In this document: piece by piece, positions 4,105 to 43,430 of the stretch
Position numbering within the stretch: the stretch's first letter is position 1
Layout of the letters: every line of letters starts with the position of its first letter
From: a virus
Reading direction: 5' to 3' (one strand)
Length of the DNA stretch: 64,000 bases
IMG/VR virus record: IMGVR_UViG_3300037475_000079
Span: 1-64,000 of that record
Program-made: the position numbers and the translations under genes
The notes under the pieces: generated by a model
Told to the model about the DNA's origin: nothing
Databases searched by the model: none
The model's input: the letters and a program-made list of their open reading frames with translations, nothing else

Positions 4105-4139
4105 GAATGGATTGTGGTTTTACTTCAGGAGACTTTGAA

Positions 4140-5916: not shown

Positions 5917-6113
5917 TGGCTGCCGGTGTCCGCGGTACTTCTGGAGGAGTAATAATGGGAATGAATGGACCGCCTCCGAGCGACAGACCGCGATATCCGA
6001 TCGCCACTCCGCCCATGCCACCAATCATCCGGCAGCCTATCAACTGCCGTGGCTGCGGCGCGAATCATGCAGCCAGCCAATGCCCCTATTGCGGAAGAGG
6101 ACGCGGAGGATGA
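5916..6113 (+). CDS. small Pro-rich protein with C-terminal CxxC..CxxC zinc-ribbon-like motif
   Basis: The internal ATG at 5916 overlaps the upstream TGA. Ends 'INCRGCGANHAASQCPYCGRGRGG', and its TGA overlaps the next ATG. Confidence 0.4.
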   Translation: MAAGVRGTSGGVIMGMNGPPPSDRPRYPIATPPMPPIIRQPINCRGCGANHAASQCPYCGRGRGG

Positions 6114-21975: not shown

Positions 21976-23589
21976 TTACCCGATCTGCAACGAGGTCATG
22001 ACTGAGCAGTAACCGCCCAAAGTCAGCTTGCCGCCGAACCGGGCGCGAGCGAACAAGAGCTTTTCGTTCGCCAGTGTCAGCGTCTGGCCGGTCGTCAGGA
22101 GTTCGAAGTAGAGACCCAGGCGACGATAGAGACGGTATCCGCGAAGGTTGCAGGCGAAGACCGTACCGTCGGCGATGTCGTTCTGAACGGCGACGTGGTA
22201 GTCCCCGAGCTGGTAATCCTTCAAGTGCATGCCGTAGATCGGCCGCGTGTCGCCGGTGACACCCGTCGCCAACTGCATGAACTTTTTGTATTCCTTGTCC
22301 GACGTGATGAACATGGTGTTTTCACCACCGAACGCCTTACGGTAAGGCTTCGTGATGCCATACATCAGGTTCAGTCCGTCGTTGTAAACCATCGTGGCGT
22401 GTGACGCTCCAGTTGCCGTCACGGTGATCGTGGACGACGCATTCTTCAGACCCTGCGGCTGAGTCGTTCCGTCTCCGACGGCGATCCAGTTGTCCATCTG
22501 GTACTTGAACTGGTCGCCGAGCTGGGCCACGATCATTTGGCCGATATTGGGAGCGGCGTCCATTTCGAAGTCACGGCCCCACAGGAACCCGCAACTCGCC
22601 GGGAAAAACGTCACATCGTACGTCGTAACGAATGACGTGGCGTCGAATGCAGTGATGGCCGTACCAGAGGCGGTCGTCACGTACGTCGGGGTTCCGATCG
22701 AATAGCTGTGCGCCGAAGCACCGCGATCGGTCGGAGTGATTTCGACGAACGGAACCAGCTCCCCATAAAGCAGGGGAATACGGATGGCTTCGAAGTCGAA
22801 GTACTGAGGAACGGCCTGAGTACCGCCAGACGTGTTGTCGCCGAGCAGCGGAGCCTTAGACTGACTGGGCGCAAAAGCAGCACCGCCGCGAAGTCCGCCT
22901 TGCTTGGTGAACACATCGCGTTCGGCATCTTTCAGCCTACGAGGCATTCCAATCATGTCGCCTTTATTGGCTCCTGGGCCAACCCATTCGTCGTCGTGCA
23001 TTGCCGATTTGACGAGCATTTCGTCCTCTTCGGTGACGCGAATGTTCATCTTCTGGAGAATTGGATGCTCTGGACCGTTATCACGGACAAGCATCTTCTT
23101 GAAGATTGCCCCCATCTTGGCGTATTCAAACTGCGACGGATCCTGAATGTACTTCTTCTCCGCAGTCTGAATTTTCGGGTCAGTAATATGCTCCATGCCG
23201 GGTCTCGTTTCCCAGTAGAAAGCATCATTTCCGGGTGCGTACAGACCCTTGCGTGCGAATTCGCGCTCATTCGGCCACTTGGCAGTTGATTTTGTGCAAT
23301 CGAAGCGTTCCTTGACGTGCTTGACGCGGGGATCGCCGCCAAAGTCTCCAGCAGCCTTTTCGCCGGGATTCGTGGCACCAGCGAACACCTCTCGCGGATC
23401 GGGATTGCCCTTTCCGTTCGTGTCAGCCGGGGCGTTGGGCTGCGCCATCAGTTCGGTCAGGCGAGCCTTCGTGATCTTGCCGGCCTTGACTGAATTGATT
23501 GCCGTTGCCGCAACATCCTTGTCGGAAGCGCCGGCCGGCAAGCCGTGGTTCTGGACGAGTTCGTCCCTGAGACTCTTCGTAATCGTCAT
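21976..23589 (-). CDS. major capsid protein, HK97 fold, with ~240-aa N-terminal extension
   Basis: The C-terminal ~290 aa match the HK97-family pattern ('VGDGTTQPQGL', 'LFARARFGG'). Follows the prohead protease. Confidence 0.85.
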   Translation of the reverse strand: MTITKSLRDELVQNHGLPAGASDKDVAATAINSVKAGKITKARLTELMAQPNAPADTNGKGNPDPREVFAGATNPGEKAAGDFGGDPRVKHVKERFDCTKSTAKWPNEREFARKGLYAPGNDAFYWETRPGMEHITDPKIQTAEKKYIQDPSQFEYAKMGAIFKKMLVRDNGPEHPILQKMNIRVTEEDEMLVKSAMHDDEWVGPGANKGDMIGMPRRLKDAERDVFTKQGGLRGGAAFAPSQSKAPLLGDNTSGGTQAVPQYFDFEAIRIPLLYGELVPFVEITPTDRGASAHSYSIGTPTYVTTASGTAITAFDATSFVTTYDVTFFPASCGFLWGRDFEMDAAPNIGQMIVAQLGDQFKYQMDNWIAVGDGTTQPQGLKNASSTITVTATGASHATMVYNDGLNLMYGITKPYRKAFGGENTMFITSDKEYKKFMQLATGVTGDTRPIYGMHLKDYQLGDYHVAVQNDIADGTVFACNLRGYRLYRRLGLYFELLTTGQTLTLANEKLLFARARFGGKLTLGGYCSVMTSLQIG

Positions 23590-23633: not shown

Positions 23634-25895
23634 TTAGACTCCGACTTCATCAAATAAGGATTCAGCCAGCATGGCCTCGAATTCGAGTTCTTCTGGCGAC
23701 TTCACCGAAGTTTCTTCCAGCCATTTCATCAACTCTTCCGGGTCGATCGGCTGCTCCGACAGGCTTTCAGACGTGTTGATCCCATCGACTCCGCTGGCAA
23801 TGTCTGGATCCGTTCGCGGACGATCCGCCAATGTTCCTGGGACGTTCGTCACTCCGGCAGCAGGTGTCGATTTTCCGAGAGAAGCCGCGGTGACGTTGCT
23901 CCCGGCGATAGCGTTTGCATCGTCCGCCGCCCTGACATTCTCGGTGGGCAATCCAGGAAAGTGATTCATCGACGGCATATTGAGCACGTTCTGCGAAGGA
24001 ACACCTGTGAAGTGTGCCGATGCAGTAGCGTTTGTCGCGTTGTCCGTCGGTACGCCTTGGACTGGTGGGTTTCCTGTCGGATCGAGGCTGCTGTCTTTCA
24101 GGATTGACACCAGGCGATTGCCGGCAGCCATGACGTGCTGCTTAGCGATCTTCGAGACGTGCTGTTCACCGGCTCCGGCCAGAAACTCCAGGTGATCCTT
24201 GACTTCCTTCAGGGCTGTGGCGACTGCGGAATTCAATCCCGACATTCCGTCGTCATTCGCCATCGAAGTCTTATGGACCAGCGAATACCCCTGTCCTTTG
24301 GTGGGATGGGCGCCGACGACACATTTCGTACCCATGACGCCGTGGCAGCAGCCGTACATCTTCTGGATCTGCTCGGGGCTGTGGTACATATGGGCATTGT
24401 CGGGATGCACGTCGTCGGGATGCATGACGTGATGCACATACCCCTTCGCCGAGTTCAGGTAGACGCTCCCCTCTTTGCCGCTGTGCTGAACGACTCGCGC
24501 CATGGCCTTCAGGTGAGGCACATCGACATCGACGTGAGTGTTCACATTGCCGGCCGTGTCGTGATGCGAGGCGCTGTCCGAATCGAGAGGCTGAACGTAA
24601 CTCGCGTCGTTGACGTCTTTGACGGTAGGAGTTGCAGATCGCTGGACTCCGGGGTTCGTGCTCGGATTCGTCGGCGCAGGATTCACAACGCCAGTGCTGG
24701 GCGTCGGAATTCCTGGTTCTCCAGCCGGACCCTCATTGTTGGCGAGTGCCGTGTTCGGAGATGGGTTCTGCTGCGGGCCAGTGTTGGAACCGGATGCGAT
24801 TGCAAACACCGGATCGCCAACCTGCGTGGCGTCGAGTTGGAATGTCGGCCTGTCGAGTCCAGCGACCTCCTCATCAACGACCTCGTTCGCCATATGTCGC
24901 TCATGCCAATCATGGTCCCCCTGTTGTGGGCCCTGACCGCGATTCCCTTCGTTGTCTTCGAAGCGAGCACTGGTATTGGTCCATCCACCCGATGGCGACA
25001 AGCTGTCTCGCGGGGCGGTGCTGTCGGAAGATTCCCGAGATTGGCTGTTGTCCGACGCTTTGACTTCTGGAGCGGCCACGGAAGCCTCCTTCTTATGACA
25101 GGTGCAGGAATGATCTGCGGGTGATTTGACTTCTAGCGTCACGCCTTGCACTTGCGCCGTACGGGCGTCGAACATTCGCTTGGCGAACGATTTCACAAAC
25201 GGGTGATGCAGTTTTCCGCGCGAGAAGGCGGTGATGACTGCCGCTGGGTTGCTCGGAATCGGAACGACGCTGATCTCGTAGATTTCAAACCGTGAAATTA
25301 AGTACCTTCCGTTCTTCAACGGCTCATATTCAACGGGATCAAAACCGTGACTGATCCGCAAAGCGCCGCCTTCAATCAGAACCGCTGCATCGCGCCCCAA
25401 TGCAGTGTTGAACACGCAGCAGCGAGCTGACAAAATGCGATCGTTCTGTGCGATCTTGTTGACCAGTCGGCCGACCGGCATTTCGGGATTATGAAACATC
25501 AACAGCGGCGCGGCGGGATCGAGTATCGCCCCGGAACTCTTGAGGATGTCCCGATCGCGGTCCATCGACGATGCGGTCACGATGCAATCGAAATCCAGAA
25601 TCGAACCGGGAGTCAGAGACTGCCCTTTCGTTCCCAGATCGCCGATGATCGTGTCGCTGTCGCTATAGGTCAGTCGCCGATCCGCATCCTTCAGGATTGT
25701 GGACCAGTGCTCCAGCGACTTCGCGCCGAACATAGACGGATCGCACGGACCAGTCCCATTCAGGCAGGCTTGCAACGACCGCAGGTACTGACCTGCGTTG
25801 GCGATGTCGAAGTCTGCCGGCACATTGCGGCTGGAAATTGCAGTCAGTAAATCCGCAGTGCCTGCCTTCGTGGCCATCGACCAGTTGCTTTTCAA
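23634..25895 (-). CDS. prohead protease (HK97/S78 family) fused to a ~500-aa low-complexity, His-rich C-terminal region
   Basis: 'VTASSMDRDRDIL..PLLMFHNPEMPVGR..LIEGGALRISHGF..EISVVPIPSNPAAVI'. The start may instead be MATKAG at 25877. Confidence 0.75.
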   Translation of the reverse strand: MKSNWSMATKAGTADLLTAISSRNVPADFDIANAGQYLRSLQACLNGTGPCDPSMFGAKSLEHWSTILKDADRRLTYSDSDTIIGDLGTKGQSLTPGSILDFDCIVTASSMDRDRDILKSSGAILDPAAPLLMFHNPEMPVGRLVNKIAQNDRILSARCCVFNTALGRDAAVLIEGGALRISHGFDPVEYEPLKNGRYLISRFEIYEISVVPIPSNPAAVITAFSRGKLHHPFVKSFAKRMFDARTAQVQGVTLEVKSPADHSCTCHKKEASVAAPEVKASDNSQSRESSDSTAPRDSLSPSGGWTNTSARFEDNEGNRGQGPQQGDHDWHERHMANEVVDEEVAGLDRPTFQLDATQVGDPVFAIASGSNTGPQQNPSPNTALANNEGPAGEPGIPTPSTGVVNPAPTNPSTNPGVQRSATPTVKDVNDASYVQPLDSDSASHHDTAGNVNTHVDVDVPHLKAMARVVQHSGKEGSVYLNSAKGYVHHVMHPDDVHPDNAHMYHSPEQIQKMYGCCHGVMGTKCVVGAHPTKGQGYSLVHKTSMANDDGMSGLNSAVATALKEVKDHLEFLAGAGEQHVSKIAKQHVMAAGNRLVSILKDSSLDPTGNPPVQGVPTDNATNATASAHFTGVPSQNVLNMPSMNHFPGLPTENVRAADDANAIAGSNVTAASLGKSTPAAGVTNVPGTLADRPRTDPDIASGVDGINTSESLSEQPIDPEELMKWLEETSVKSPEELEFEAMLAESLFDEVGV

Positions 25896-26013
25896 TCAGA
25901 GAAGCGAATTATTCTGCGATTCCGGCGCAGACTTAGAATGCTTCTAACGATGATTGAGAAGTTGTCGCAGAATGAATAGATGTGCGTACTACGCGAACGG
26001 AAATACGCGCGTG

Positions 26014-26046
26014 AAAAAACCCACGACGGTTAGTCGTGGGTTTTTC
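26014..26046. terminator. bidirectional rho-independent terminator
   Basis: AAAAA-ACCCACGAC-ggtta-GTCGTGGGT-TTTTT. Confidence 0.55.
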
Positions 26047-26049
26047 ACA

Positions 26050-26240
26050 ATCATCCATTCCCGTCCTCACGAATTCTCTCCAGACCTCGCCTCGCCTGCC
26101 ACGCCAATCCCTACCGTTCCATGCCGGCCCTCTCCGATACGTTCCCGTCCTATCCATTCCTGCCATTCCTCGCCAACCCGATCCGCGCCGCTCCCAGCCG
26201 TTCCGGCCACGCCATGCCGGCCCAATCCGGCCACGTCGCT
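26050..26240 (-). repeat. strand-asymmetric heptamer array A (CCNWTCC on +, GGAWNGG on -)
   Basis: About 16 TCC triplets in ~190 nt by hand count. Shares the 15-mer TTCCCGTCCTATCCA (26142-26156) with array B. Confidence 0.6.
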
Positions 26241-26248
26241 AACATCAT

Positions 26249-26666
26249 CTACTTCGCACTCATCTTTCTGGCAACCGACTTCGCCGTCATTTTAGAACGA
26301 TTCGATTTCTTATTTCGTTCCCGAATCCGAATGACTCTTGCCGCTTCAAACACCTGCGCGAGTTCCGACAGCACGGCGTATTTCTGTTGGAAGAATTCCA
26401 ATTCACGCAGGGCCATCGCTAACATCGCCGCACGATGACCGGAATTACGAACAACGTCTGTCGTTCTCCGATACCCTCCAGTTTCTGTACCGCGGTCCTG
26501 AGGAAGTGAAACATAGGCACGGATGTTCTGTTCAACTGCCGGCTCAAAGTAGACACAGACACGGATGATTTGCCGAGCCTGCCACAGACGGTATTCGACG
26601 GCCGCCTTCGAGTCATCCCAGACGAATTCTGCGTGAAGCGCCGTCTTTCGATTTCTAGCAAACTCT
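26249..26666 (-). pseudogene. 3' part of a phage gene split by the transposon
   Basis: Protein-like open frame with no start codon (..EFARNRKTALHAEFVWDDSKAAVEYRLWQARQIIRV...KMSAK*). Joins in frame to 31441-31534 once the element is removed. Confidence 0.7.
26659..26666. repeat. target-site duplication, left copy (CAAACTCT)
   Basis: An identical 8-mer abuts the outer end of both terminal inverted repeats. Confidence 0.75.
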
Positions 26667-26691
26667 GGTACTGGCTAGATAGTGCGGTGCT
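26667..26691 (+). repeat. left terminal inverted repeat
   Basis: GGTACTGGCTAGATAGTGCGGTGCT. Confidence 0.75.
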
Positions 26692-26726
26692 CGACAGAAT
26701 GTCTGGATTGGCGACGTAAGTGCGGA

Positions 26727-26981
26727 TCAGGATTTTGTCATGCCAAGTCCCCAGACCCATTCGAGATAATTATGTAGCCACGCTGGACCGCTCTCGTATG
26801 CCCAACGAGCCGGGGCGCAATAAGACCATGTAATCTTTCCGGCAACGCTATTATCGTTCAGGAGTATTCCGCGAACGTCCAGCCACGCAATTGGAAACAG
26901 GCTCAGCGGATACCCCACGAGCACCGCGACCAGCACCACGGTCACCCAAAACGCCACACCGGGTTTCTTGCGGTCAGTCAT
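26727..26981 (-). CDS. small membrane protein (transposon cargo)
   Basis: Starts MTDRKKPGVAFWVTVVLVAVLVGYPLSLF. Its ATG overlaps the upstream TGA. Confidence 0.45.
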   Translation of the reverse strand: MTDRKKPGVAFWVTVVLVAVLVGYPLSLFPIAWLDVRGILLNDNSVAGKITWSYCAPARWAYESGPAWLHNYLEWVWGLGMTKS

Positions 26982-27094
26982 GGTTTGCGCCGCATGAATA
27001 TGATGGTGGACACCAGAGCGATCAGGCACGCGACTACGACTGGAATCCAGACCGCCGGAACAATCTCGTAATACCGCGCAATGATCGGGCTCAT
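26978..27094 (-). CDS. 38-aa membrane peptide (below the ORF-track cut-off)
   Basis: MSPIIARYYEIVPAVWIPVVVACLIALVSTIIFMRRKP*, coupled to the next gene by an ATGA overlap. Confidence 0.35.
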   Translation of the reverse strand: MSPIIARYYEIVPAVWIPVVVACLIALVSTIIFMRRKP

Positions 27095-27131
27095 GCCCGC
27101 ATTCTACCCACGGTGGCGTGGGAGCGGGAAG

Positions 27132-27650
27132 CTAATTATTTCGTTTTGTAGCTTTTTGGAATTCCGGAAACAGGCCATCGCCCAATATTGGAATAGGGAC
27201 TGGTGGGAAGCCCATGCGCACGCTCATTGATTGAACGAATTCTCGCCAATAAGGCCAAACCATGCGAAGACCCGACACCTGTCCAAAAGCTAAGGCGTCA
27301 TCTTCTGGCGGTGCCGACGATTCTGGTTTTAGTTGGAATACAATACGAAACGTTGCCTCGATCAAAATTGGCTGTTCCAGTGTTTTGAAAAACGCAGTCA
27401 TATTGAGTTTAACGATGTAATTGAGCGCCTTTGATCCATCTACGCCCTCCCCAAAGGCTGATTTAATCTCGACGTCAAATTTTGCCTCTGCTGGACCTGA
27501 AAGAGGCGATACCGGATGTTTGTCTCGCGATGAACCGCAATTTTCCAAGCGGATAAAACTAACCGTGGTAACGTCCTTCGCGACTCTCACAGCTCTGGTC
27601 AATTCATCTTCACTCCGATCGGTCGGCGTTTTTTTAAGCTTTTTGGACAT
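27132..27650 (-). CDS. SecB-like chaperone (third component of a TAC module)
   Basis: 'GLRMVWPYWREFVQSMSVRMGFPPVPIPILG' parallels SecB '[32 protein letters not shown]', and the upstream beta-strand pattern is also SecB-like. Confidence 0.65.
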   Translation of the reverse strand: MSKKLKKTPTDRSEDELTRAVRVAKDVTTVSFIRLENCGSSRDKHPVSPLSGPAEAKFDVEIKSAFGEGVDGSKALNYIVKLNMTAFFKTLEQPILIEATFRIVFQLKPESSAPPEDDALAFGQVSGLRMVWPYWREFVQSMSVRMGFPPVPIPILGDGLFPEFQKATKRNN

Positions 27651-28047
27651 GGTGAAGCGGCCGTTCAGTTTTGGTTTCCGGGAATTTCAGAATCCATCCG
27701 TCCGAGTCATCTTCAAATTGATTCGCAGAGAATGGAAAGCTCATCTGAAGCTTAATTCCAGTGCCAGAACTTGCCGGCCTAATCGTCGGGACAAATTCAT
27801 GTCCGAGCACCAAAAACACATCGGCTATTGTCCGAATCGTCATGTTTGCGCTGCCGTCCAAAAGCTGAGTGATATAGCCCTTGGTTTTCCCCAGTCTTGC
27901 CGCAAGCTCAGAACGAGTCACGCCGGCCTCATCCATGACGTCACAGACGAGATCCGTTGTATCCAATATTGACCGCTCCTGGTTCCATAGTAGCGCTCCC
28001 TCTTTGGAAGACGTTAAACGATCCTTCAGACTGGTCCATTTCGTCAC
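27634..28047 (-). CDS. XRE-family HTH antitoxin (HigA-like) with ~45-aa C-terminal extension
   Basis: HTH 'GVTRSELAARLGKTKGYITQLLDG'. Overlaps both the toxin and the chaperone genes. Confidence 0.7.
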   Translation of the reverse strand: MTKWTSLKDRLTSSKEGALLWNQERSILDTTDLVCDVMDEAGVTRSELAARLGKTKGYITQLLDGSANMTIRTIADVFLVLGHEFVPTIRPASSGTGIKLQMSFPFSANQFEDDSDGWILKFPETKTERPLHHVQKA

Positions 28048-28451
28048 TTATTCTGTCCCCCCTTTTCGTTAACCCTCTCCCATTGAAAATGTTCGGCTGC
28101 AATATTCTGGGCGTGCGTGATTGCCCCTTGTGGGCATTTCCCACGACCGCCAGCTTTCTTGATTCGATGCGTCAGAAGGACTCTCGGGCCGATGCGATAA
28201 CACAGCAATCTGTGGTCGCCTCGCTTGAACTCCCAAATATCTCCGTCAAGTTGCCGAAATTGCTCTTTGTTTGGAATTCGTCCAGAATCAACAAGGCGAC
28301 GAAACAAAACGTCAAAACTGGCTAGAACATTGACAGGACTTTTGTCGAACCACGACTTCGCTTCCATCGTTCCATCGGCGCGAATGGCAAATTCAACAGT
28401 GCCATAGCGACCCTTTTCCAGCGTTCTATCGTCGCGAGATGGGGCAGCCAT
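28044..28451 (-). CDS. HigB/RelE-superfamily toxin (Gp49-like)
   Basis: 'LDGDIWEFKRGDHRLLCYRIGPRVLLTHRIKKAG..P..AITHAQNIAAEH' fits the Gp49/HigB pattern. The toxin-first gene order is typical of HigBA. Confidence 0.7.
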   Translation of the reverse strand: MAAPSRDDRTLEKGRYGTVEFAIRADGTMEAKSWFDKSPVNVLASFDVLFRRLVDSGRIPNKEQFRQLDGDIWEFKRGDHRLLCYRIGPRVLLTHRIKKAGGRGKCPQGAITHAQNIAAEHFQWERVNEKGGQNK

Positions 28452-28610
28452 GAAGTTTATCTTAAACTAAACCACTGGTCAACGAAAAATCGAGATATAT
28501 TTGCGATCTCAATTCAATCATCTCAGCGAACCCGATGCGCATTGTGGTGTCAAGCGGATATGCACATTTCTTTATTCATCAATGACCGTCCGTTCACCCC
28601 GATGTAGTTC

Positions 28611-28705
28611 GGAGAACGGCCCGCGCCCTGGCGGCGCAGCAGACTTATACCCTGAAGGAGGGGACCGGCAGGCTGCCGGCTTGGGTTCGATTCCCCCGCT
28701 CTCCG
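28611..28705 (+). other. tRNA-like remnant (not a functional tRNA)
   Basis: GGGTTCGATTCCC T-loop-like box, a 6-bp CCGGCA/TGCCGG variable-arm-like hairpin, and a 6/7 acceptor pairing (GGAGAAC/GCTCTCC). The D and anticodon arms do not fold. Confidence 0.25.
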
Positions 28706-28711
28706 CTCGCT

Positions 28712-28894
28712 CTATCGAGTGTCACGCTTGGCGGCTCTGTTAAGCCGGTCACGAATCCAAGCGGCAAGAGACATTCCAGATTCGTCGGCGGCTGACCGCC
28801 ATGCGGTCTTGTCGGCGCTCGTCAGCCGCAACTGGAACACTTCTTCCGCGCGTTCGTCGGCTGGCTTCGGTGGTCGTCCACGCTTGGCTTTCAT
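28712..28894 (-). CDS. ribbon-helix-helix DNA-binding protein (paralogue 1 of 3)
   Basis: Basic N-terminus, then 'FQLRLTSADKTAWRSAADESGMSLAAWIRDRLNRAA' (strand-helix-helix pattern). Confidence 0.55.
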   Translation of the reverse strand: MKAKRGRPPKPADERAEEVFQLRLTSADKTAWRSAADESGMSLAAWIRDRLNRAAKRDTR

Positions 28895-28900
28895 GGCTGG

Positions 28901-28971
28901 ATTGTAATTACAAGAAATCTTTTGTCAACCGCTGATTTTCTGTTGACACCTGACTAAATGTAATTACAATA
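28901..28971. promoter_or_regulatory. mirror-image divergent promoters with TGTAATTACA palindromic operators
   Basis: Minus: TTGACA (28923-28928), 16 nt, TACAAT (28901-28906). Plus: TTGACA (28943-28948), 16 nt, TACAAT (28965-28970). Each -10 is embedded in TGTAATTACA. Confidence 0.5.
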
Positions 28972-29107
28972 AAGCCAGTGAAAGAGAAAACCCCGATCAG
29001 TGTTATCAGCACCGACCGGGGCGAGAACACAACCCGGCGAATCGCCGAATCGCGTCCCTGACAAGAACGATTCTAAACGATTCGCCCCCACAAAGGGAGA
29101 GCGAATC

Positions 29108-30061
29108 ATGGCATGTCCGAAATGCGGATCAGAGAACGTAAAGGCCAACGGAAAGCATCGGAACGGGAGTCAGCGGTTCAAGTGTCGTGACTGCAAGAAA
29201 ACATTCACGGAAAATCGCCTCAAGCCGCTTGGCGACATGCGGCTGCCGGTCGAAAAGGCATTGAACATTCTCCGGCTGCTGCTCGACGGCATGTCGATTC
29301 GCGCGTGTGAACGGTTCACGGGCGTCTGCCACAAGACGATTTGTGACATGATTCTTGAGGTCGGTGATCGATGCGGACAGTTCCTTTCAGACCGCCTGCA
29401 AGGCGTGCCGGTTTCCGACGTGCAGTGTGATGAAATTTGGTCGTTCGTCGGCATGAAGGAGCGGACGAAAACGAACACGCACAATAGCGACCCGCTCATG
29501 GGCGACAGCTATTGCTACGTCGGACTGGAACGCGATACGAAACTGATCGTCTCGTACCTGCTCGGAAAGCGCGACGAATTCGACACGCATGAATTCGCGT
29601 CCGGTTTGCGGCGCGCGACGGCGGGACGGTTCCAGCTTTCGACAGATGGGTGGCAGCCGTACTACACCTACATGCCGCTCGAATTCGGGCAGCGGATTGA
29701 CTTCAGCACGATAATCAAGACGTTCGCCAATGCACCGCGCGGGAGCGGGAGGTACTCGCCGGGTGAGATAGTGACGATCAACAAGCGCCCGGTTGTCGGT
29801 GATCCCGACTTGTCTCGCGTTTGCACTTCGCACGTCGAGCGATCGAACTTGACAATTCGCATGTCTATTCGCCGCTGGACCCGGCTCACGAATGCATTCT
29901 CGAAATCGTGGAAGCACCACAACGCCATGATGGCAATTTTCGTCGCGTTCTATGATTTCTGCCGGACCCACATGACGCTCAAGACGACTCCCGCTGTCGC
30001 GGCTCGCTTGACGGATCATCCGTGGACACTTGAGGAATTGCTGACGGCAGCCGCGATATAG
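29108..30061 (+). CDS. IS1-family transposase (single ORF with N-terminal zinc finger)
   Basis: 'MACPKCGSENVKANGKHRNGSQRFKCRDCKKTF', DDE candidates 'VQCDEIWSF', 'LSTDGWQPY', 'SHVERSNLTIRMSIRRWTRLTNAFSK', and 'FYDFCRTHMTL'. Confidence 0.8.
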   Translation: MACPKCGSENVKANGKHRNGSQRFKCRDCKKTFTENRLKPLGDMRLPVEKALNILRLLLDGMSIRACERFTGVCHKTICDMILEVGDRCGQFLSDRLQGVPVSDVQCDEIWSFVGMKERTKTNTHNSDPLMGDSYCYVGLERDTKLIVSYLLGKRDEFDTHEFASGLRRATAGRFQLSTDGWQPYYTYMPLEFGQRIDFSTIIKTFANAPRGSGRYSPGEIVTINKRPVVGDPDLSRVCTSHVERSNLTIRMSIRRWTRLTNAFSKSWKHHNAMMAIFVAFYDFCRTHMTLKTTPAVAARLTDHPWTLEELLTAAAI

Positions 30062-30075
30062 GACCGGAAACGACC

Positions 30076-30114
30076 AACCCCGCCGGAGTGATTCGGCGGG
30101 GTTCTTGTATTTTC
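30076..30114 (+). terminator. rho-independent terminator after the transposase gene
   Basis: AACCCCGCCG-gagtgatt-CGGCGGGGTT followed by a T-rich tail. Confidence 0.6.
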
Positions 30115-30127
30115 GAGACTTTGTATA

Positions 30128-30172
30128 TTATGCAAGATCCCCCTTGACAATCGTTGCATATCTTGCATAATT
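30128..30172 (+). promoter_or_regulatory. promoter with TTGCATA operator repeats for the second TA pair
   Basis: TTGACA (30144-30149), 17 nt, ATAATT (30167-30172). Inverted repeat TTATGCAAGAT/ATCTTGCATAA. Three copies of the heptamer TTGCATA/TATGCAA. Confidence 0.5.
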
Positions 30173-30225
30173 GAATGCGGCTGGGGCGGCACGAGTGCCG
30201 AAACATTTTCAGGGGAGTCTTGACC

Positions 30226-30681
30226 ATGCCGGACGATGCTAAATCGCAAATCGAGAAACCGCAGCAATCTCTTACTGTAGTTGCGCTCGACTGGGCCAAG
30301 GACGAAGGAAGGCGGATTCTGACGAATGAGCAATACTGGCACGTCGTCAGATACATCAAGCGGCTAGTCGAATTTGGCGACAAATCGGCAATGTCAGACC
30401 TCTCGATAAGCCAACTGGGGAGTGGATTTTGGGCACTTAAACTGAAGGGGCGGATCTTGAAAAAGATCAACCTCCGAATTTATTTCGCCCATGTTCCTGA
30501 AAGGAATGAAATTGTTGTGTTGATGGCCTACAAAAAAGAAGAAGATCGTCGCGTATGTCCAGCAGTTAAGTACCTTTTGGAGGACAGGCTTGAAGATTAC
30601 TTGGCGGGCCGCACAGAGCGGGCGAGCTATTTTTCTGGGGAAACGGGCGAACCACGGGGCTCTGAATCGGAGGGCGAATAA
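30226..30681 (+). CDS. RelE/HigB-like toxin (Gp49-like), second TA pair
   Basis: 'FWALKLKGRILKKINLRIYFAHVPERNEIVVLMAYKKEED'. GGGGAG lies 8 nt upstream of the ATG. Confidence 0.55.
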   Translation: MPDDAKSQIEKPQQSLTVVALDWAKDEGRRILTNEQYWHVVRYIKRLVEFGDKSAMSDLSISQLGSGFWALKLKGRILKKINLRIYFAHVPERNEIVVLMAYKKEEDRRVCPAVKYLLEDRLEDYLAGRTERASYFSGETGEPRGSESEGE

Positions 30682-31166
30682 TGAGTGTCACAATCGAAAA
30701 AAATAATGCGGCGGTTGAGAAAGAGCGCGTCCAGGATCTGTTGCTTGCATATACAAAACTGCCGAAGAAAAAAAAGGATCGCGTCGAAAAGCTGGTGGAA
30801 TTGCTCAGAACGGCCGACCCTGGCAGTGAAGAGCAGCGGGAGATCGCCGGTGCGATCGCCGAAATCCTCATTCCGCATATAATCGGAAGGAGTCAATCGC
30901 GACCAGTGGATTTGGAGGAAGGGATTTCATCTGCTGGACGCCAAAGCGTTGATGCGTATCACAAAAGCGTTGGCGAAGCGATCCGCAATGCGAGGGACGA
31001 AGCAGGCATGACGCAAGAGATGTTGGCGAAAAATAGTGGCTTGCCGCAGAGCCACATCAGTAGGCTGGAAGCTGGAATCCACGCCCCGACGAACAAGACG
31101 ATTGAGAAAATTGCGGAAGCTCTAAATATTGATCCATCAAAACTCGACCTGCTTTATGATTCATGA
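30681..31166 (+). CDS. XRE-family HTH antitoxin, second TA pair
   Basis: C-terminal HTH 'GMTQEMLAKNSGLPQSHISRLEAG..PTNKTIEKIAEAL'. The ATG overlaps the toxin stop. Confidence 0.65.
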   Translation: MSVTIEKNNAAVEKERVQDLLLAYTKLPKKKKDRVEKLVELLRTADPGSEEQREIAGAIAEILIPHIIGRSQSRPVDLEEGISSAGRQSVDAYHKSVGEAIRNARDEAGMTQEMLAKNSGLPQSHISRLEAGIHAPTNKTIEKIAEALNIDPSKLDLLYDS

Positions 31167-31193
31167 TTGTCAGGGCGTGATGTTTCTTACAAA

Positions 31194-31225
31194 AGCCAGC
31201 CGTCCGATGACGGTTGGCTTTTTCG
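31194..31225 (+). terminator. rho-independent terminator after the second TA pair
   Basis: 11-bp stem AGCCAGCCGTC/GACGGTTGGCT (one G-U pair), loop CGAT, then a T-run. Confidence 0.55.
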
Positions 31226-31269
31226 CTTTCCACTCGCCCTCCCGTCGCCATCCAGGGTATGATTGCGGC

Positions 31270-31404
31270 ATGAACATTTGGCCTGAACTTCTGGTGTGGG
31301 GCGTCCTGCTGGCGGTGGCCGGCTATCAGCTATTCGATCTCGCGCGAGACTTGGACGCACGCGATAAAAAGTCGCGGTCGCAATCGCCCGATTCCGCTCC
31401 CTGA
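31270..31404 (+). CDS. possible 44-aa membrane peptide
   Basis: MNIWPELLVWGVLLAVAGYQLFDLARDL.. ends 11 nt before the right terminal repeat. No clear RBS. Confidence 0.25.
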   Translation: MNIWPELLVWGVLLAVAGYQLFDLARDLDARDKKSRSQSPDSAP

Positions 31405-31415
31405 CCGGACGAGCC

Positions 31416-31440
31416 AGCACCGCATTGTCTAGCCAGTACC
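31416..31440 (-). repeat. right terminal inverted repeat
   Basis: The reverse complement is GGTACTGGCTAGACAATGCGGTGCT, 23/25 identical to the left repeat. Confidence 0.75.
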
Positions 31441-31448
31441 CAAACTCT
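31441..31448. repeat. target-site duplication, right copy (CAAACTCT)
   Basis: Identical to 26659-26666. Confidence 0.75.
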
Positions 31449-31534
31449 ACAACATCAGCCGGGTTGACCGCGCCGTCTTCGGAGCGGCTGCGAATCAGTT
31501 CGATTTCTTCACGAATCTTGTCGCTTGACTTCAT
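31441..31534 (-). pseudogene. 5' part of the phage gene split by the transposon
   Basis: GGAGG RBS, then MKSSDKIREEIELIRSRSEDGAVNPADVVEF. After 31441 the frame runs into the terminal repeat and turns Arg/Pro-rich. Confidence 0.7.
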
Positions 31535-31555
31535 TTTTAACCTCCATGCTTAGAG

Positions 31556-31830
31556 TTGGTTTTCCTGCCGTTCCGGTCCATTCGCGACCTCTGCGGTCCA
31601 ATCCTCTCCGATCCGTTCCGGCCATTACTATCCTGTCGTTTCCACTCCGATCCGGTACGGGCCTATCCGGCCTCTCCGTTCCTCTCCGCTGCCCTCCGAT
31701 CCATTCCCGTCCTATCCACTCCACCCCTGCCACTCCCTTCCATTCCCCACCATTCCGCATCTTTCCGGTCCTATCCAGCCATTCCGCTGCCTACCTATCC
31801 GCACCGATCCGTACCATACCGTTCCGGCCT
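31556..31830 (-). repeat. strand-asymmetric heptamer array B (GGAWNGG on the transcribed strand)
   Basis: About 33 TCC triplets in ~275 nt by hand count. Recurring CCGTTCC, CCATTCC, CCGATCC and CCTATCC words. Open in most frames because stop codons are depleted. Confidence 0.6.
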
Positions 31831-32519
31831 TACTGAATCACATCAAACGTGCCCCAGCCCATGCCCGGAGAATCCTTCGATGACGGACGGCCTTCGAGAA
31901 CGCCGCAGCTTGCGCCAGCATGCGCCAGCAGATTGGCAATGTCCTGAAGCGTGAACGCATCAGCGTCGAAGCGAATCGTGACGACAGCTTCCCAGCCAGA
32001 GTTGAACTTGGCACGCGCTCGAAGATCGCACGATCCGTTGTCGTTGCGTACCGGGGAAACCATCATCTCTGGTTTCCCCTTCGTCAACTTTACGAGCGGC
32101 GTGAAATCCTCCGACTCTCCATCAGGCAGCACGTTGAACGCCTGCTTTGCCGCAGCCATCGAGAAGTCAATGGCCGGTGAGCGGCAGGCGTCAATCAGCG
32201 CATGACGGAACGACGCGCACGGAATTCCGAGCCATCCATCATTCGAGATGTGCTTCGACGCTTCATAGCAGGCGTCGAAATCCTTGGCGTCTCGCTTGCG
32301 GTTTTTCTTCGCCGTGCATCCGGCCTTCTGGTCGCTCTCCATTTTGTCCTTGGCCTTTTGGCTGAACTTGTTCATCACGAGCCATGCGTTCCCGCGCACC
32401 TTGAATTGCGCGACCTGCCGATTCGGTGCCTTGATTGTGACGTGCCGCGTCTCGACGGTCGCCGCAATTCGATTGACGCCGTTCGTTCCGTTCTTCGTTG
32501 CCGTTGCCATCTCAAACAC
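31830..32519 (-). CDS. hypothetical head-region protein
   Basis: 229-aa ORF with protein-like composition. Family not recognised. Confidence 0.5.
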   Translation of the reverse strand: MFEMATATKNGTNGVNRIAATVETRHVTIKAPNRQVAQFKVRGNAWLVMNKFSQKAKDKMESDQKAGCTAKKNRKRDAKDFDACYEASKHISNDGWLGIPCASFRHALIDACRSPAIDFSMAAAKQAFNVLPDGESEDFTPLVKLTKGKPEMMVSPVRNDNGSCDLRARAKFNSGWEAVVTIRFDADAFTLQDIANLLAHAGASCGVLEGRPSSKDSPGMGWGTFDVIQ

Positions 32520-34407: not shown

Positions 34408-36759
34408 TTACTCCGATAATAGACTGCAACGGCAGTTGATCCTCTGGGAAGCCGACAAATCGGGATCTCCCGGATATTTTGCCTTTTCCCCGCCGACAGT
34501 GAAGTTCCCTTCCGCGTCCGACTTCTGGCCGTTCGCATTCCAGTGCGATTGTCTGGCGTGCTCATCCATCGTGGTCAGCCATTCAGAACCAGTGGCAATC
34601 CCCTCTTCGATCATGTCCTGAATCTCGGAGAACTGGCCGGCGTTCAATGCCATCGTGCTCTCTGATCTGGCAATCATCAGCGATCTCGCGCCAGCAGAAC
34701 GGCCACCCAACGCCTGATCGACTCGGAACACACGTTCCCGCAGTGTGTCGCCTTCCTCGAAGGAAATACGCAGGCAGTTGCTCAGGTCATCGAGCATCGT
34801 ATCGTTGATGCCGGACCAGTACGGTTTCTTCAGTGCCTCATCGAGCGTGCGCTTCATGGCAGCCACGACGCCGGCCGGAAGTCGCATCGTCGGATCGGCG
34901 TCATCCTTCCTGAATGACTTCAGTTTGTGCCGAGCTAATTCGGCACCGGCAACCCCACATCGCAGCAAGTGTGGATAGGCCATCTTGCGTAACGGCGCAT
35001 CCCAGTCTCGTGGATTGAACACCGCGGCAGCATCGAAGGCGTCGGCCTGCTGGTCCATCTTGGCGACGATTGACGCCACCTGTGCCTTGATGAACTTATG
35101 CACGTCTCTGGCGAACGGCTTCTCGTTGTTCGAATGCAGTTTAAGCCATGACGTCTCGAAGTCCTTCGTCGTGTCTGACGTAATCAGCAGTTGCTTCGCG
35201 GTATCAGATTCGGAATTCGATTGTTGCTGCGTGGTTGGATCTGGCGGCAGGTATTCTTCCCGAACTTCCAAGGCAGTGGCAGCTTCGTCGTCGATCGGTT
35301 CGAGGATCTGCATGGCCGTCGTGATTCGGACTTTCCCCATCCCATTCGGCATCGGAGGAAATCCGAGAGACGAGCGCAGTTCATCGACAACCAGGCCGGC
35401 ATTACCGCACAGCAGTTCCAGGTCTTTGCGGAGACCGTCCTTGTCGGAAGAAACGGCTTCCTCGATCCACATGACCGTATGGCCGGTCTTTTTCTTATCG
35501 AACAATGGCAGGAGCCGGTCGTTCATGATCGTCGAGAGGAAATTGATCTCGGGATTGGCGATGTTCGAAGTGAACACCTCATCTGCCACGAGTGCCGTGG
35601 CGCGATTGGCGTCCGTGATGTCCCCGCCGACGACCGCAGGCGTGCCGTAGTTCCGCCAGATGGCCTGGCGGTTGTAGGTTCCCGATTCGGTGAAGTCCAT
35701 TTCGTTGGCGGTGTTCGAAATCTTCTTGATGTCCGAAATTGCTCGATCGAGGATGATTGCCCGACCGTGCTTCGAAGCCCCTTGGAACAGGTGCTGAAGC
35801 CGTGTCATCATTTGCGTGATCTGGAATCTGTCGAGCTGGGCCTTGCCAAGATTCTTGCCGTTCGGGTCGATGATGTCCCCGGTGATGACCGCTAACCAAG
35901 GCAGAATCGAGTTCTCGAAGAACTGTCGCTGACTCAAACGGATTGACTCATCAACCTGCACGGCCAGTACGCCGGCTCGCGTCGGCGAATGCGGCACGAA
36001 GATATTCGCCGGGTCGGGATGGCAGAAGAAGATCACCCGATCGGCCGGAAGATCGACGCCTTCCATCTGGTTGAACGGAGGCGCGAGCACATACCCCGCG
36101 TCCAGCATGGCATTTCTCGGCTTCTCGCGGATCCAGTGCGAGGGGAGATACCACAAGTCGTACGGGCGATCTCCGGTGTGAGAGTCGGTCAGCCACCAGA
36201 AGCAGCGGCCGGTCATATCCAGGCTGGCGACGGTGCTTTCCAGGAGCGTGTGCTGCGTCAACCGGGGAATCGGCTGCGACAGCAAGTCCAAGACCGGATG
36301 GTTCTCCAGGATCTCGACTCGGGCCGCTTCTGAATGAAAGCTCTTGTGCAGCTTGATCCGGGTTCCGAGGTTCTCATGAAACGGCAGTCCGATTCGAGAG
36401 CAAATCCACTTCGGGAGAACGGCAGTCTCTTCCGGTTGAAGCTCCCGGCGCCCCGGAGTCTTGAACGGGTTCGAGAATCCCTTACGCTTGCCTGATTCTT
36501 CCCGAGCGGACACAACTTCCGCCACATGAATCGGCTGGCCGGCGATGCGCTGCCTTTTGGGGCGCATGGCGGCGTAGGCTTCTCCCGTGTTGTGGGAGTA
36601 GGAGTTTTGCGACTGAAACTGTTCGGGATCGGCCTGTTGAGGATACTGGCTTTCGTTCAGCGAATTGAAGATGCGTCCGGCATCGTTCGATCCGCGACGC
36701 CGCTTCAGTTCACGATCCTTGTCCGCCCACGAGCGGATTTCGGCAAGAGCAGACGACAT
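34408..36759 (-). CDS. portal protein fused to a MuF/SPP1 gp7-like head morphogenesis domain
   Basis: 783 aa, downstream of terL. The C-terminus 'TTMDEHARQSHWNANGQ....YPGDPDLSASQRINCRCSLL' matches the MuF signature. GAGGA RBS. Confidence 0.7.
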   Translation of the reverse strand: MSSALAEIRSWADKDRELKRRRGSNDAGRIFNSLNESQYPQQADPEQFQSQNSYSHNTGEAYAAMRPKRQRIAGQPIHVAEVVSAREESGKRKGFSNPFKTPGRRELQPEETAVLPKWICSRIGLPFHENLGTRIKLHKSFHSEAARVEILENHPVLDLLSQPIPRLTQHTLLESTVASLDMTGRCFWWLTDSHTGDRPYDLWYLPSHWIREKPRNAMLDAGYVLAPPFNQMEGVDLPADRVIFFCHPDPANIFVPHSPTRAGVLAVQVDESIRLSQRQFFENSILPWLAVITGDIIDPNGKNLGKAQLDRFQITQMMTRLQHLFQGASKHGRAIILDRAISDIKKISNTANEMDFTESGTYNRQAIWRNYGTPAVVGGDITDANRATALVADEVFTSNIANPEINFLSTIMNDRLLPLFDKKKTGHTVMWIEEAVSSDKDGLRKDLELLCGNAGLVVDELRSSLGFPPMPNGMGKVRITTAMQILEPIDDEAATALEVREEYLPPDPTTQQQSNSESDTAKQLLITSDTTKDFETSWLKLHSNNEKPFARDVHKFIKAQVASIVAKMDQQADAFDAAAVFNPRDWDAPLRKMAYPHLLRCGVAGAELARHKLKSFRKDDADPTMRLPAGVVAAMKRTLDEALKKPYWSGINDTMLDDLSNCLRISFEEGDTLRERVFRVDQALGGRSAGARSLMIARSESTMALNAGQFSEIQDMIEEGIATGSEWLTTMDEHARQSHWNANGQKSDAEGNFTVGGEKAKYPGDPDLSASQRINCRCSLLSE

Positions 36760-36906: not shown

Positions 36907-37425
36907 CTATTCCCCCATCATCCTCTGCTGCCAGTTCACCGCTGGATCTTTTGCACCGACGATGCGCTCGTTGTAAACCGCGATCTCCGCCTTCTCGCGC
37001 GTCAGGTTCTTCTCGTGCAGGGCCGCGAGCAGCTTGTTCTCATCTTCCAGGACGTCGATGCGATTCTTCAGACGTGGAATGTCTGTATCTTCGAGCCGAC
37101 TTACCTCCCGAGCCTTGGTAGCCAGACGTCCTTCGAGTTCCTTGATCTGATTATCCTTGGCGGTCAGTTTCAACGCAATGTCAGCAACCTGCTTGGCGGC
37201 GTCACGCTTAGACTTGACGGCCTCTAACCGGGCGTCACGGATGGCTTGTGATTCCTGGCGACGGCGGATGAGCTTGCGGAGAGCGGTCCAGGTGCGAAGG
37301 AAGATGCCGGGTGTAACATCGACGACGCGGACATTGACGGCACACTCACCAATTAGTGGACGGCGAGTCTCGTGGCCGTTTGTTGAGGGCGGTTCAAGTT
37401 CAGGCCATTCGTGCCTTTTCACCAT
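36907..37425 (-). CDS. coiled-coil protein
   Basis: Start taken at MVKRHEW. Long heptad-like region 'AKQVADIALKLTAKDNQIKELEGRLATKAREVSRLED'. Confidence 0.45.
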   Translation of the reverse strand: MVKRHEWPELEPPSTNGHETRRPLIGECAVNVRVVDVTPGIFLRTWTALRKLIRRRQESQAIRDARLEAVKSKRDAAKQVADIALKLTAKDNQIKELEGRLATKAREVSRLEDTDIPRLKNRIDVLEDENKLLAALHEKNLTREKAEIAVYNERIVGAKDPAVNWQQRMMGE

Positions 37426-39182: not shown

Positions 39183-39775
39183 TACACCGACTCCTCTTCC
39201 CGCGGTGGCGTAATAATGATCCCGGCGTTTCTGTAATCCTCCGTAGGATCCTCGCTGAATGCCGCAGAAAACACATCCATCTCGTTCTTGTCGATACCCA
39301 GCATCAGAATCAGCTTGTCCCGCTTTTCAACGGCTTTCAGCAACCCTCTCAACGCCAAGTCCATCGCCGCCAACGAAAGCGGCGCCTTCTCCCCATCCTC
39401 CATCCCGTACTGGCTAATCACCCGCTCATAAAGCAAAGCCGCCCGCTCCGACCTCACAATCGACTGCAACATCGCCGCATGAGACAGCGACACGCTACCA
39501 CGAGACTCTAAAATCGCATCGAACAACTGATTCTTCAGCTTCACCAGCTTCCGAGCAATGTACTTGCAGCCCACCGGAAGGCCGCTATGCGTACAAGAAT
39601 CAACCCCGCTCTTTCTCCGAACACCAGACTCCGATAACCCGTTCCGCAGCCTCTTCTTGATCGAATACTCTCGTGGTGACGAATCTGGAACAGGAACGTC
39701 CCGACGCTCCCACTTCCCTCGCTCCAACCCCACAGGAGCCGCGCCAGCAACGGATTCGACAGGTATCACAGACAT
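39182..39775 (-). CDS. putative terminase small subunit (call by position only)
   Basis: The stop overlaps the terL ATG. No motif recognised. Confidence 0.35.
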   Translation of the reverse strand: MSVIPVESVAGAAPVGLERGKWERRDVPVPDSSPREYSIKKRLRNGLSESGVRRKSGVDSCTHSGLPVGCKYIARKLVKLKNQLFDAILESRGSVSLSHAAMLQSIVRSERAALLYERVISQYGMEDGEKAPLSLAAMDLALRGLLKAVEKRDKLILMLGIDKNEMDVFSAAFSEDPTEDYRNAGIIITPPREEESV

Positions 39776-43168: not shown

Positions 43169-43430
43169 AAAAACCTACGGCAACGGCACACGACACGAGG
43201 TCATCAATCGCGCCATCCGCGCCGAGCTAACTGGCGGCAATGAGTGCCTCGAAACGATTCGGGCGCTGAATGAACGCATCGCCAATCTGCGTAACGCTGG
43301 CGAATCAACCGCTTATGCCGAGCAGAGATTGCGGAGTTGGGAGCAAGAGCGAGATAAGATGGCAACACACATCGAGGCCAAGCATCAGGTCGGGGCGAAT
43401 ATGAATCGCAGGGGGAGCGTCGCATCGTGA
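43158..43430 (+). CDS. hypothetical protein (position suggests an excisionase or regulator)
   Basis: Start at MSIRKTYG. 90 aa. Its stop overlaps the integrase GTG. Confidence 0.35.
   Translation: MSIRKTYGNGTRHEVINRAIRAELTGGNECLETIRALNERIANLRNAGESTAYAEQRLRSWEQERDKMATHIEAKHQVGANMNRRGSVAS

Follow-up and report, generated by a model that had tools for sequence, protein, structure and literature searches.

What is the 4,774-bp segment that divides a phage gene at positions 26667-31440 of IMG/VR virus record IMGVR_UViG_3300037475_000079, and how did it come to lie there? The segment was analysed within its window, the first 64 kb of this record, which is identical to a 93-kb Logan contig from run SRR12917118. 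We conclude with high confidence that it is one autonomous, passenger-carrying transposon of the IS1 family, a 'transporter IS' (tIS; IS, insertion sequence), which entered a conserved phage gene, of the phrog_15946 type, through DDE transposition. Besides its transposase the element has at least eight other genes for proteins and one for an RNA, the last a tRNA-like gene of the allo-tRNA(UAU) type at 28611-28704. A sequence-only reading of this DNA had already proposed a passenger-carrying IS derivative, and this is supported by transposase scores above the IS1 cut-offs, by a single pair of terminal inverted repeats (TIRs) and by relatives with the same ends and 8-bp target-site duplications (TSDs). 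The tRNA-like gene and the family-wide context had escaped that reading.

The insertion and the gene that it divides

The left TIR (26667-26691, plus strand, GGTACTGGCTAGATAGTGCGGTGCT) and the reverse complement of the right TIR (31416-31440, minus strand, GGTACTGGCTAGACAATGCGGTGCT) were recognised by inverted-repeat comparison, the left one also by the end-motif survey of the family described below. They are identical at 23 of 25 positions, identity breaks at position 26, and both ends begin GGTACTG. When up to three mismatches are allowed, the 25-mer occurs at exactly two sites in the window and at none in 100 dinucleotide-preserving shuffles. The ends are abutted on the outside by two copies of CAAACTCT (26659-26666 and 31441-31448), and since the bases beside the two copies differ, the TSD is exactly 8 bp long. 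On both counts our recount agrees with the sequence-only reading. In-silico removal of 26667-31448 fuses minus-strand positions 31534-31449 (86 nt) to 26666-26249 (418 nt), with the empty-site junction TTCTAGCAAACTCTACAACATC, and yields an open reading frame (ORF) of 504 nt, that is, 167 codons and a stop. The same restoration had been described earlier as 94 + 410 nt, which assigns the TSD to the other side of the junction and gives an equal total.

The 5' part of the divided gene, with its start codon at 31534, thus occupies 31449-31534 on the minus strand, and the 3' part (codons 29-167 and the stop), which includes the left TSD copy, occupies 26249-26666 on the same strand. These assignments follow from the excision and the alignment of homologues, together with the ORF list for the former and a phrog_15946 match for the latter. 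A search for uninterrupted alleles of the restored 167-aa protein, as the earlier reading had proposed, returned homologues of 163-166 aa that cover 98-99% of its length at 73-79% identity. The match of the restored protein to phrog_15946 spans the junction (residues 8-138, E 2.8e-18), and its AlphaFold model has a mean pLDDT of 89, with 94-97 in the blocks of residues near the junction (31/32). A related phage contig, L002 (GCA_040383985.1; loci compared with the window are given L numbers), is uninterrupted at the insertion site and has the same neighbour genes, its positions 9964-10092 aligning with window 31574-31443 and its positions 10098-10418 with window 26656-26335. The insertion splits a phrog_15946-type gene, and has probably inactivated it. 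The restored protein has no Pfam family, a structural search gave insignificant winged-helix-like matches only, and its structural relatives are exclusively uncharacterised phage proteins.

The transposase and its presumed regulator

The transposase gene (29108-30061, plus strand) is a single ORF of 317 aa with an N-terminal zinc ribbon, followed by a terminator-like hairpin at 30076-30103 on the plus strand (terminator scan). It is the sole transposase or recombinase gene in the ORF list and Pfam matches within 26667-31440. That the only internal transposase is of the IS1 type, as had been claimed, is upheld by scores above the curated cut-offs of both NCBIfam (transpos_IS1, 106.9 bits, cut-off 100; IS1_IS1595_Zn, 51 bits, cut-off 28) and Pfam (DDE_Tnp_IS1, 35.4, cut-off 24.1; Zn_ribbon_InsA, 30.1, cut-off 26.1). 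The putative catalytic residues D108, D180 and E244 lie in columns that are conserved in at least 95% of 55 homologues, and more than 7,000 homologues are present in a large protein collection. The motifs CDE(I/M)W, TDGW and ER.N, as in IS1 InsB, are also present. The host may be a planctomycete, a guess based on how the closest homologues of the transposase and the toxin are annotated.

IS1-family elements have TIRs of about 20-25 nt beginning GG...TG and TSDs of 8-9 bp, and IS1 of E. coli itself has a TSD of 8-9 bp and ends of the GG...TG kind. The element in the window has the N-terminal zinc ribbon and DDE domain, 25-nt ends beginning GGTACTG and an 8-bp TSD. The classical IS1 group, in contrast, is about 0.7-1.2 kb long, has insA and insB joined by a -1 frameshift and is without passenger genes. 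The present element is 4.8 kb long against 0.77 kb for IS1, has one continuous transposase ORF in place of the insA/insB frameshift, with 24% identity to E. coli InsAB, and adds a separate regulator gene and passenger genes. It belongs to a single-ORF, cargo-bearing branch of the family and not to the classical group. ISfinder has IS1-family members of up to about 4.6 kb and single-ORF subgroups such as ISMhu11; we found no mention of ISMhu11 in the searchable literature. A composite transposon was also considered and is excluded because there is one transposase only and there are no internal inverted repeats; neither a second transposase nor internal or IS-sized repeats were found within the element. 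What is found, passengers and one transposase inside one TIR pair, is the organization of a tIS or unit transposon.

Divergent from the transposase gene lies a gene for a 60-aa ribbon-helix-helix (RHH) protein (28712-28894, minus strand), with a weak, below-cut-off NikA-like match in Pfam (E 1.6e-4, 22.2 bits, cut-off 27) and homologues at the same place in the related elements L006, L095, L091, L100 and L004. A repeat search and a promoter scan of the control region between the two genes (28894-28977) identified a 36-nt imperfect palindrome, whose two TGTAATTACA copies overlap the -10 boxes of two divergent promoter-like sites of the form TTGACA-16-TACAAT (plus strand 28943-28970, minus strand 28928-28901, 11 of 12 matches each). 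The regulator that had been suggested for this element can thus be specified as an RHH gene divergent from the transposase gene, with a palindromic putative operator between them. The RHH protein is presumed to repress both divergent promoters.

The state of these genes bears on the age of the insertion, which could be real but old and now immobile within a decaying prophage. An integrase is present, the sequence may be that of a prophage, where IS insertions accumulate, and no second copy was found. Yet the TSD is perfect, the split gene shows no further frame damage, its restored product is still as similar to its homologues as stated above, and the element retains an intact transposase ORF with its DDE residues, an intact RHH gene and intact promoters. 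We therefore regard an old insertion as unlikely; it concerns timing only and is compatible with an autonomous IS1-family transposon.

A family of cargo-bearing elements

Related transposases were found at 61 other loci, in many phyla, within elements of the same signature: ends of GGTA(G/C)TG, an exact 8-bp TSD, and 1.8-8.8 kb with variable defence or addiction cargo. The survey set comprised 80 loci from species-representative genomes (Acidobacteriota, Alphaproteobacteria, Planctomycetota, Dehalococcoidia and others) with transposases 36-48% identical to that of the window, and was scanned for any 20-nt inverted pair around the transposase with an identical flanking repeat, the end sequence not being prescribed. 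In 58 of the 80 the best pair had ends starting GGTAGTG and an exact 8-bp flanking repeat, delimiting elements of 1,817-8,833 bp (median 3,241 bp). Across 126 family ends the first seven bases, GGTA(G/C)TG, are almost invariant.

Closer relatives, with transposases 66-76% identical, also have an 8-bp TSD in every case, and each has a cargo of its own: a ParA-like protein in L006 (4,826 bp), an SDH-type protease in L091 (5,358 bp), an MmeI-like restriction-modification enzyme in L092/L093 (7,947 bp) and a DNA methyltransferase in L095 (4,597 bp). Representative cargo of the distant elements includes helix-turn-helix (HTH) and Peptidase_M78 proteins, STAND and AAA ATPases, an AbiEii-like ATPase, a dCTP-deaminase-like protein, ClpP-like proteases and Bro-N proteins. 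A conserved 87-aa ORF of the distant elements was tried as a counterpart of the divergent RHH gene and rejected, as it lies mostly on the same strand and 1-2 kb upstream.

The cultured jumbo phage Brevundimonas vB_BpoS-Gurke (L102) contains an unannotated family member of 6,654 bp (L102 2477-9130; about 173531-180184 of ON529850.1), with ends GGTAGTGGCACAGTTTGAA and TSD CGAGTGTG, 11 bp past the DNA polymerase gene. This element falls in an unannotated 7.8-kb gap that follows the polymerase gene, and ARAGORN at a relaxed threshold reports a tRNA-Gln(ctg)-like sequence just inside its left end. Of the about 60 delimited elements, four have a host tRNA gene close outside one of their ends, at a distance of 60-193 bp (L022, 5600-5690; L063, 3294-3368; L073, 8443-8519; L060, 9815-9900). 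At a rough estimate this is more than expected from the density of tRNA genes, and a target preference is possible.

Ends identical to those of the window at 24 of 25 positions, or nearly so, occur in other contexts (L006 4882-4906, L087, L089). In the metagenome fragment L089 a near-identical end has DNA homologous to the window just inside it. The end at L006 4882-4906, 24/25 identical to the window's left end, is a solo end 240 bp from the left end of a different 4.8-kb family element; it faces away from that element and could be the right terminus of a truncated or adjacent one.

These near-identical ends bear on whether the segment could be a non-autonomous cassette that was moved in trans, its IS1-type gene being a mere passenger. 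The solo end of L006 and the end in L089 have no visible transposase in the stored sequence, the two ends of the present element differ at 2 of 25 positions, and the element is known from its sequence. At about 60 independent loci, however, the same transposase family lies inside GGTA(G/C)TG ends with an 8-bp TSD while the cargo is otherwise unrelated, and no other transposase or recombinase gene was found inside the element. Movement in trans is thus very improbable.

A false join is less probable still. A phage contig and a bacterial transposon contig could have been joined through a short shared sequence, and the source is a metagenome assembly; such a chimera would not yield TIRs, a perfect 8-bp repeat and the in-frame restoration of a conserved gene. 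A JGI record (L003) is 100% identical to the window over the left junction and 3.7 kb of the element; it may derive from the same sample, and would then not count as independent evidence.

Several points nonetheless weigh against the autonomous-transposon interpretation. The insertion was judged on assembled metagenome sequence alone. No second full copy of the exact element was found at another site: exact searches of IMG/VR for the element ends and for the joined empty-site sequence gave no matches, and a metagenome scan for the ends gave only three partial loci. Recent activity is accordingly deduced from the intactness of the element and not observed. In the survey the flanking repeat was required by the scan, so that the universality of the duplication is partly built in, and 22 of the 80 loci gave no pair, many of them with a contig end near the gene. 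The candidate ends of L100, an IMG/VR contig, are without a TSD, and the first toxin and the chaperone of the cargo described below score below curated cut-offs.

A tRNA-like gene beside the transposase module

The tRNA-like gene is 94 nt long (28611-28704, plus strand) and was recognised from Rfam, from ARAGORN on the L006 copy, from its homologues and their covariation, and by comparison with the allo-tRNAs (PMC5389517). It would encode an RNA whose acceptor stem has 9 bp and whose T stem has 3 bp, with a long variable arm, CUUAUAC as the anticodon loop and G as the discriminator; CCA is not encoded. When the window was scanned with Rfam at gathering thresholds and with ARAGORN no tRNA was called, and on 28611-28704 itself Rfam gives tRNA-Sec only 21.9 bits. 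The L006 copy is called tRNA-Ile(tat) by ARAGORN at a relaxed threshold, and no other DNA is as well conserved between the element of the window and L006 as this stretch. Homologues are present in L006, L095 and L091, and an independent motif search recovered another in L100, where the gene adjoins an RHH gene and an IS1-type transposase gene of only 33% identity; a second motif search of IMG/VR found only L100 again. In L100 the candidate ends GGTAGTGGTACAGTTTG and GGTAGTGGTACACTTTG (2797-6576) enclose the allo-tRNA, RHH and transposase genes.

In an alignment of the five sequences 90% of cells are paired and 10 of the 27 pairs have changed on both sides. None of 500 shuffles reaches the paired fraction or the covariation score and one reaches the number of pairs changed on both sides, while sliding the structure by 1-3 columns leaves only 41-54% paired. 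Fitting the alignment to the model favours the structure; the compensatory changes are nonetheless plain in the raw sequences. In the acceptor stem 93% of cells are paired and four pairs have changed on both sides, whereas the 3-bp T stem is invariant. The stem of the variable arm is kept with unrelated sequences (CCGGC/GCCGG, CCGAU/AUCGG, CUGGA/UCCAG, UCG/CGA). The anticodon loop is YUUAUAM with an invariant UAU, and a G follows the acceptor stem. The D stem has 5 bp and a 5-nt loop, the anticodon stem has 3-5 pairs with a standard pair (G-U) at the loop-closing position in only one of the five copies, and the T loop is non-canonical (AUCGUAA) in three of the five. The G-U pairs of the D stem would favour the plus strand as the RNA.

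In all five elements the tRNA-like gene is on the transposase strand, and in four of the five its 3' end and the stop codon of the convergent RHH gene are 0-15 nt apart. This conserved position suggests a link between the RNA and the RHH/transposase module. The tRNA-like sequence inside the element and the phage integrase gene at 43427-44341 also recall a further alternative, an integrase-type genomic island with a tRNA-like attachment site. This has next to no probability: the tRNA-like gene is complete and lies well inside the element, its distance being about 1.9 kb to the left end and 2.7 kb to the right end, the boundaries carry no repeat of it, no recombinase was found inside the element, and inverted-repeat ends with an 8-bp target repeat are the signature of DDE transposition.

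No promoter-like site of its own was found for the tRNA-like gene in the promoter scan. Its single-sequence fold is no stabler than those of shuffles (z = 0.29), so that the case for the RNA rests on covariation. The gene was not found, with filters off, in L004/L005, L092 or L102, which rules out its presence in every close relative; L004/L005 and L092 are bounded close relatives, so the RNA is dispensable for the existence of an element.

Could the allo-tRNA(UAU)-like RNA of this IS1-family transposon be a working part of the transposition or regulation module of its clade, and not random cargo, so that the transposon would bring a tRNA-like regulator of its own? We put this forward tentatively, and at present think it rather unlikely. 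If it is so, the RNA might gate how the RHH repressor or the transposase is expressed, for example by decoding a rare AUA codon at Ile221 of the transposase (window 29768-29770). This codon is ATA in all six transposase genes of the close clade (window, L006, L004, L091, L092 and L095); in the seventh, that of L100, the column has ATG, and codon 202 is ATA in three of the seven. The share of ATA among isoleucine codons is 15% in these transposases versus 3 of 167 in the phage genes of the window. The retention of ATA at Ile221 is a lead on the role of the RNA, and shared ancestry could explain it too.

Genes for class II tRNAs of canonical appearance, which have G73 and a long variable arm, occur in the distant IS1-family cargo elements L008 (7757-7844), L059 (6833-6931, minus strand) and L083 (3006-3101). 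A similar gene lies beside the same kind of transposase in L062 (6733-6821, minus strand), where element boundaries were not found. These genes have either the anticodon UUA, with which UAA stop codons would be read (ARAGORN 'tRNA-Stop'), or UAG, and would be tRNAs of the suppressor type. In L008 a second odd tRNA adjoins the first.

Protein cargo and a possible mode of action

The sequence-only reading had placed two toxin-antitoxin modules in the element. Both are supported, with the refinement that the first is tripartite, including a putative SecB-like chaperone, and that the second toxin is recognised by its predicted structure. The first operon is on the minus strand behind a promoter-like site at 28482-28454. 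Its first gene (28044-28451) encodes a putative HigB/Gp49-like toxin, identified by its position and by a Pfam Gp49 score of 22.6 bits, just below the cut-off of 23.9. The second (27634-28047) encodes a HigA-like HTH antitoxin, with below-cut-off HTH_3/HTH_31 matches, a PADLOC match to PDC-M64B/C (E 1.7e-8) and a C-terminal extension of about 60 aa past the HTH domain. This gene overlaps both neighbours, by 17 nt in the case of the third gene (27132-27650), which encodes the SecB-like protein. The latter matches SecB models of Pfam and NCBIfam at E 1e-3 to 3e-3 (Pfam E 3e-3), far under the cut-offs, and its best relative of solved structure is Rv1957, the SecB-like chaperone of a toxin-antitoxin-chaperone (TAC) system (5mtw_C, E 2e-3). 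A sequence search of both toxins of the element against solved structures gave nothing useful.

The second module, on the plus strand behind a promoter-like site at 30144-30171, comprises a 151-aa protein (30226-30681) and a 161-aa HTH_3 antitoxin or regulator (30681-31166; Pfam HTH_3 64 bits, with NCBIfam and PADLOC matches to antitoxin-type HTH proteins), the start codon of the latter overlapping the stop codon of the former at 30681. The 151-aa protein has no significant sequence-family match (the only Pfam match is Gp49, E 0.076), and weak Gp49 matches occur in 7 of its 22 homologues. Its AlphaFold model (pLDDT 85) has HigB2, HigB1 and RelE as its top Foldseek matches in the PDB, with probability 1.0 and target TM scores of 0.57-0.74. 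On this predicted RelE/HigB fold, the module is a putative HigBA-type pair with the toxin upstream of the HTH antitoxin.

Three small membrane proteins complete the cargo. The first, of 84 aa (26727-26981, minus strand), was identified from the ORF list, a hydrophobic stretch and a homologue in L089, where it lies beside the near-identical element end; it has no Pfam or NCBIfam match. The others are a 38-aa single-pass membrane peptide, MSPIIARYYEIVPAVWIPVVVACLIALVSTIIFMRRKP (26978-27095, minus strand), which is probably coding to judge from a reading of the sequence and from DNA similarity to L089, and a putative 44-aa protein read from the sequence at 31270-31404 on the plus strand.

From these parts a mode of action can be proposed. 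The transposase would bind the GGTA(G/C)TG ends and join them to target cuts staggered by 8 bp, the repair of which would make the 8-bp duplication. The RHH protein would bind the two TGTAATTACA boxes over the divergent promoters and so throttle its own gene and that of the transposase. The whole interval between the ends would move as cargo, that is, the HigB/HigA/SecB-like module, the pair of HigB-fold and HTH proteins, the three small membrane proteins and the tRNA-like RNA. The toxin-antitoxin modules, most likely cargo for addiction or defence through which the element is retained, would stabilise or defend the replicon that carries it.

The phage surroundings

The divided gene belongs to a head-morphogenesis block that runs on the minus strand, with the portal region on one side of it and genes for the prohead protease and capsid on the other. 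The block includes genes for the large terminase (37419-39182), the portal (34408-36759), a 229-aa PHROG protein (31830-32519), a 753-aa protease-containing protein (23634-25895) and the major capsid protein (21976-23589), all on the minus strand, which bears out the morphogenesis setting proposed earlier. Phage-type genes extend to both ends of the window, and together with the integrase this indicates a temperate phage or a prophage.

The divided gene is flanked, in the minus-strand sense, by intergenic stretches (31545-31835 and 25930-26260) whose coding strand is G-rich and dense in GGA-containing units of about 10 nt, with 33 GGA in 291 nt and 16 in 331 nt. These are the top GC-skew peaks of the window (-0.54 and -0.65); two weaker peaks appear at a threshold of -0.45 (38876-39025 and 39326-39475). 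The homologous gene of L002 is preceded by a GGA-repeat leader of about 520 nt (9460-9980) with little sequence identity to the window, and gene callers translate part of the GGA stretch as a repetitive 83-aa peptide. By analogy these stretches are reminiscent of CsrB/RsmZ-type GGA sponge RNAs. Other genes of the phage region (2071-3327, 7422-8492, 9080-10468 and 61927-62826) encode a DegT-type aminotransferase, a protein with a pilin-like N-terminal methylation motif, one with a weak, below-cut-off glycosyltransferase-like match and a PAPS-reductase-like protein; L002 has sugar epimerases within its structural block.

Relation to known systems

Transporter ISs, IS derivatives that carry passenger genes, are an established concept (PMC9330008, PMC7986276), and the element in the window, with one IS-type transposase and passengers in a single TIR pair with a TSD, is an IS1-family member of this already-known kind. 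What appears to be new is its allo-tRNA/RHH/transposase core, which is conserved in five elements and was not found described in the searchable literature. Nor did that literature, which did not extend to ISfinder, contain a delimitation of the large cargo-bearing clade, which may have a name in ISfinder, or a description of its presence in three phage genomes. Sizes of 1.8-8.8 kb, defence or addiction cargo, tRNA genes and phage residence, in which the clade differs from the tIS described there, were likewise not found.

Toxin-antitoxin genes also travel inside unit transposons of the Tn3 family, in which type II pairs lie beside the transposition genes (PMC7157771). The present element differs in its transposase family and end type, has no resolvase or res site, and carries two modules, one with a SecB-like chaperone.

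The TAC system of Mycobacterium tuberculosis consists of HigB1, HigA1 and SecB(TA) (Rv1955-Rv1957). In TAC systems the antitoxin needs the chaperone by way of a C-terminal extension. The first module of the element resembles the mycobacterial one in the order of its putative toxin, HTH antitoxin and SecB-like chaperone, in its overlapping genes and in having Rv1957 as the closest solved relative of the third protein, and differs in that the scores of all three proteins are weak, reaching the family cut-offs at best.

The allo-tRNAs have an acceptor branch of 12 bp in the 9/3 or 8/4 form, a long variable arm, G73 or U73, a non-serine anticodon, a tRNA-Sec-like D arm with a long stem and a tetraloop, and a 6-bp anticodon stem (PMC5389517). 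Their UAU group, which predominates among the 8/4 forms, is the most abundant one, has stem-destabilizing mutations and adjoins toxin-antitoxin genes and a transposon-related gene; UAU-type allo-tRNAs converted to amber suppressors were inactive in E. coli (PMC5389517). The RNAs described here share the 12-bp branch, in the 9/3 form, the long variable arm, the discriminator G, the anticodon UAU, stem-weakening mismatches in some copies, and toxin-antitoxin and transposon-related neighbours. They differ in fitting 9/3 where UAU is listed as predominant among the 8/4 forms (PMC5389517), in their D arm of 5 bp with a 5-nt loop, and in the T loop AUCGUAA of three of the five copies. The mobile element was left undefined in that study (PMC5389517), whereas here it is bounded by ends and TSDs and assigned to the IS1 family.

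Implications

The locus provides a fully delimited case of a DDE transposon loading addiction or defence genes into a phage genome. Further phage members are present in one viral metagenome contig and, unannotated, in one cultured jumbo phage, and from their occurrence in three phage genomes it follows that phages may regularly carry such elements between hosts. The survey defines a large and broad IS1-family clade with GGTA(G/C)TG ends, an 8-bp TSD and 2-9 kb of variable cargo, of which annotation pipelines at present label only the 'IS1 family transposase' gene.

The element also gives a physical context to the allo-tRNAs, an unusual class of tRNA-like RNAs described in 2017. In four of the five bounded elements that have a UAU-type gene, this gene adjoins those for the regulator and the transposase, which makes direct tests possible. 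If the RNA is indeed a working part of the module, allo-tRNAs would adjoin toxin-antitoxin and 'transposon-related' genes through one common vehicle, and the class II tRNAs of the distant elements, whose anticodons are UUA (ochre-reading) or UAG, would be further versions of this arrangement.

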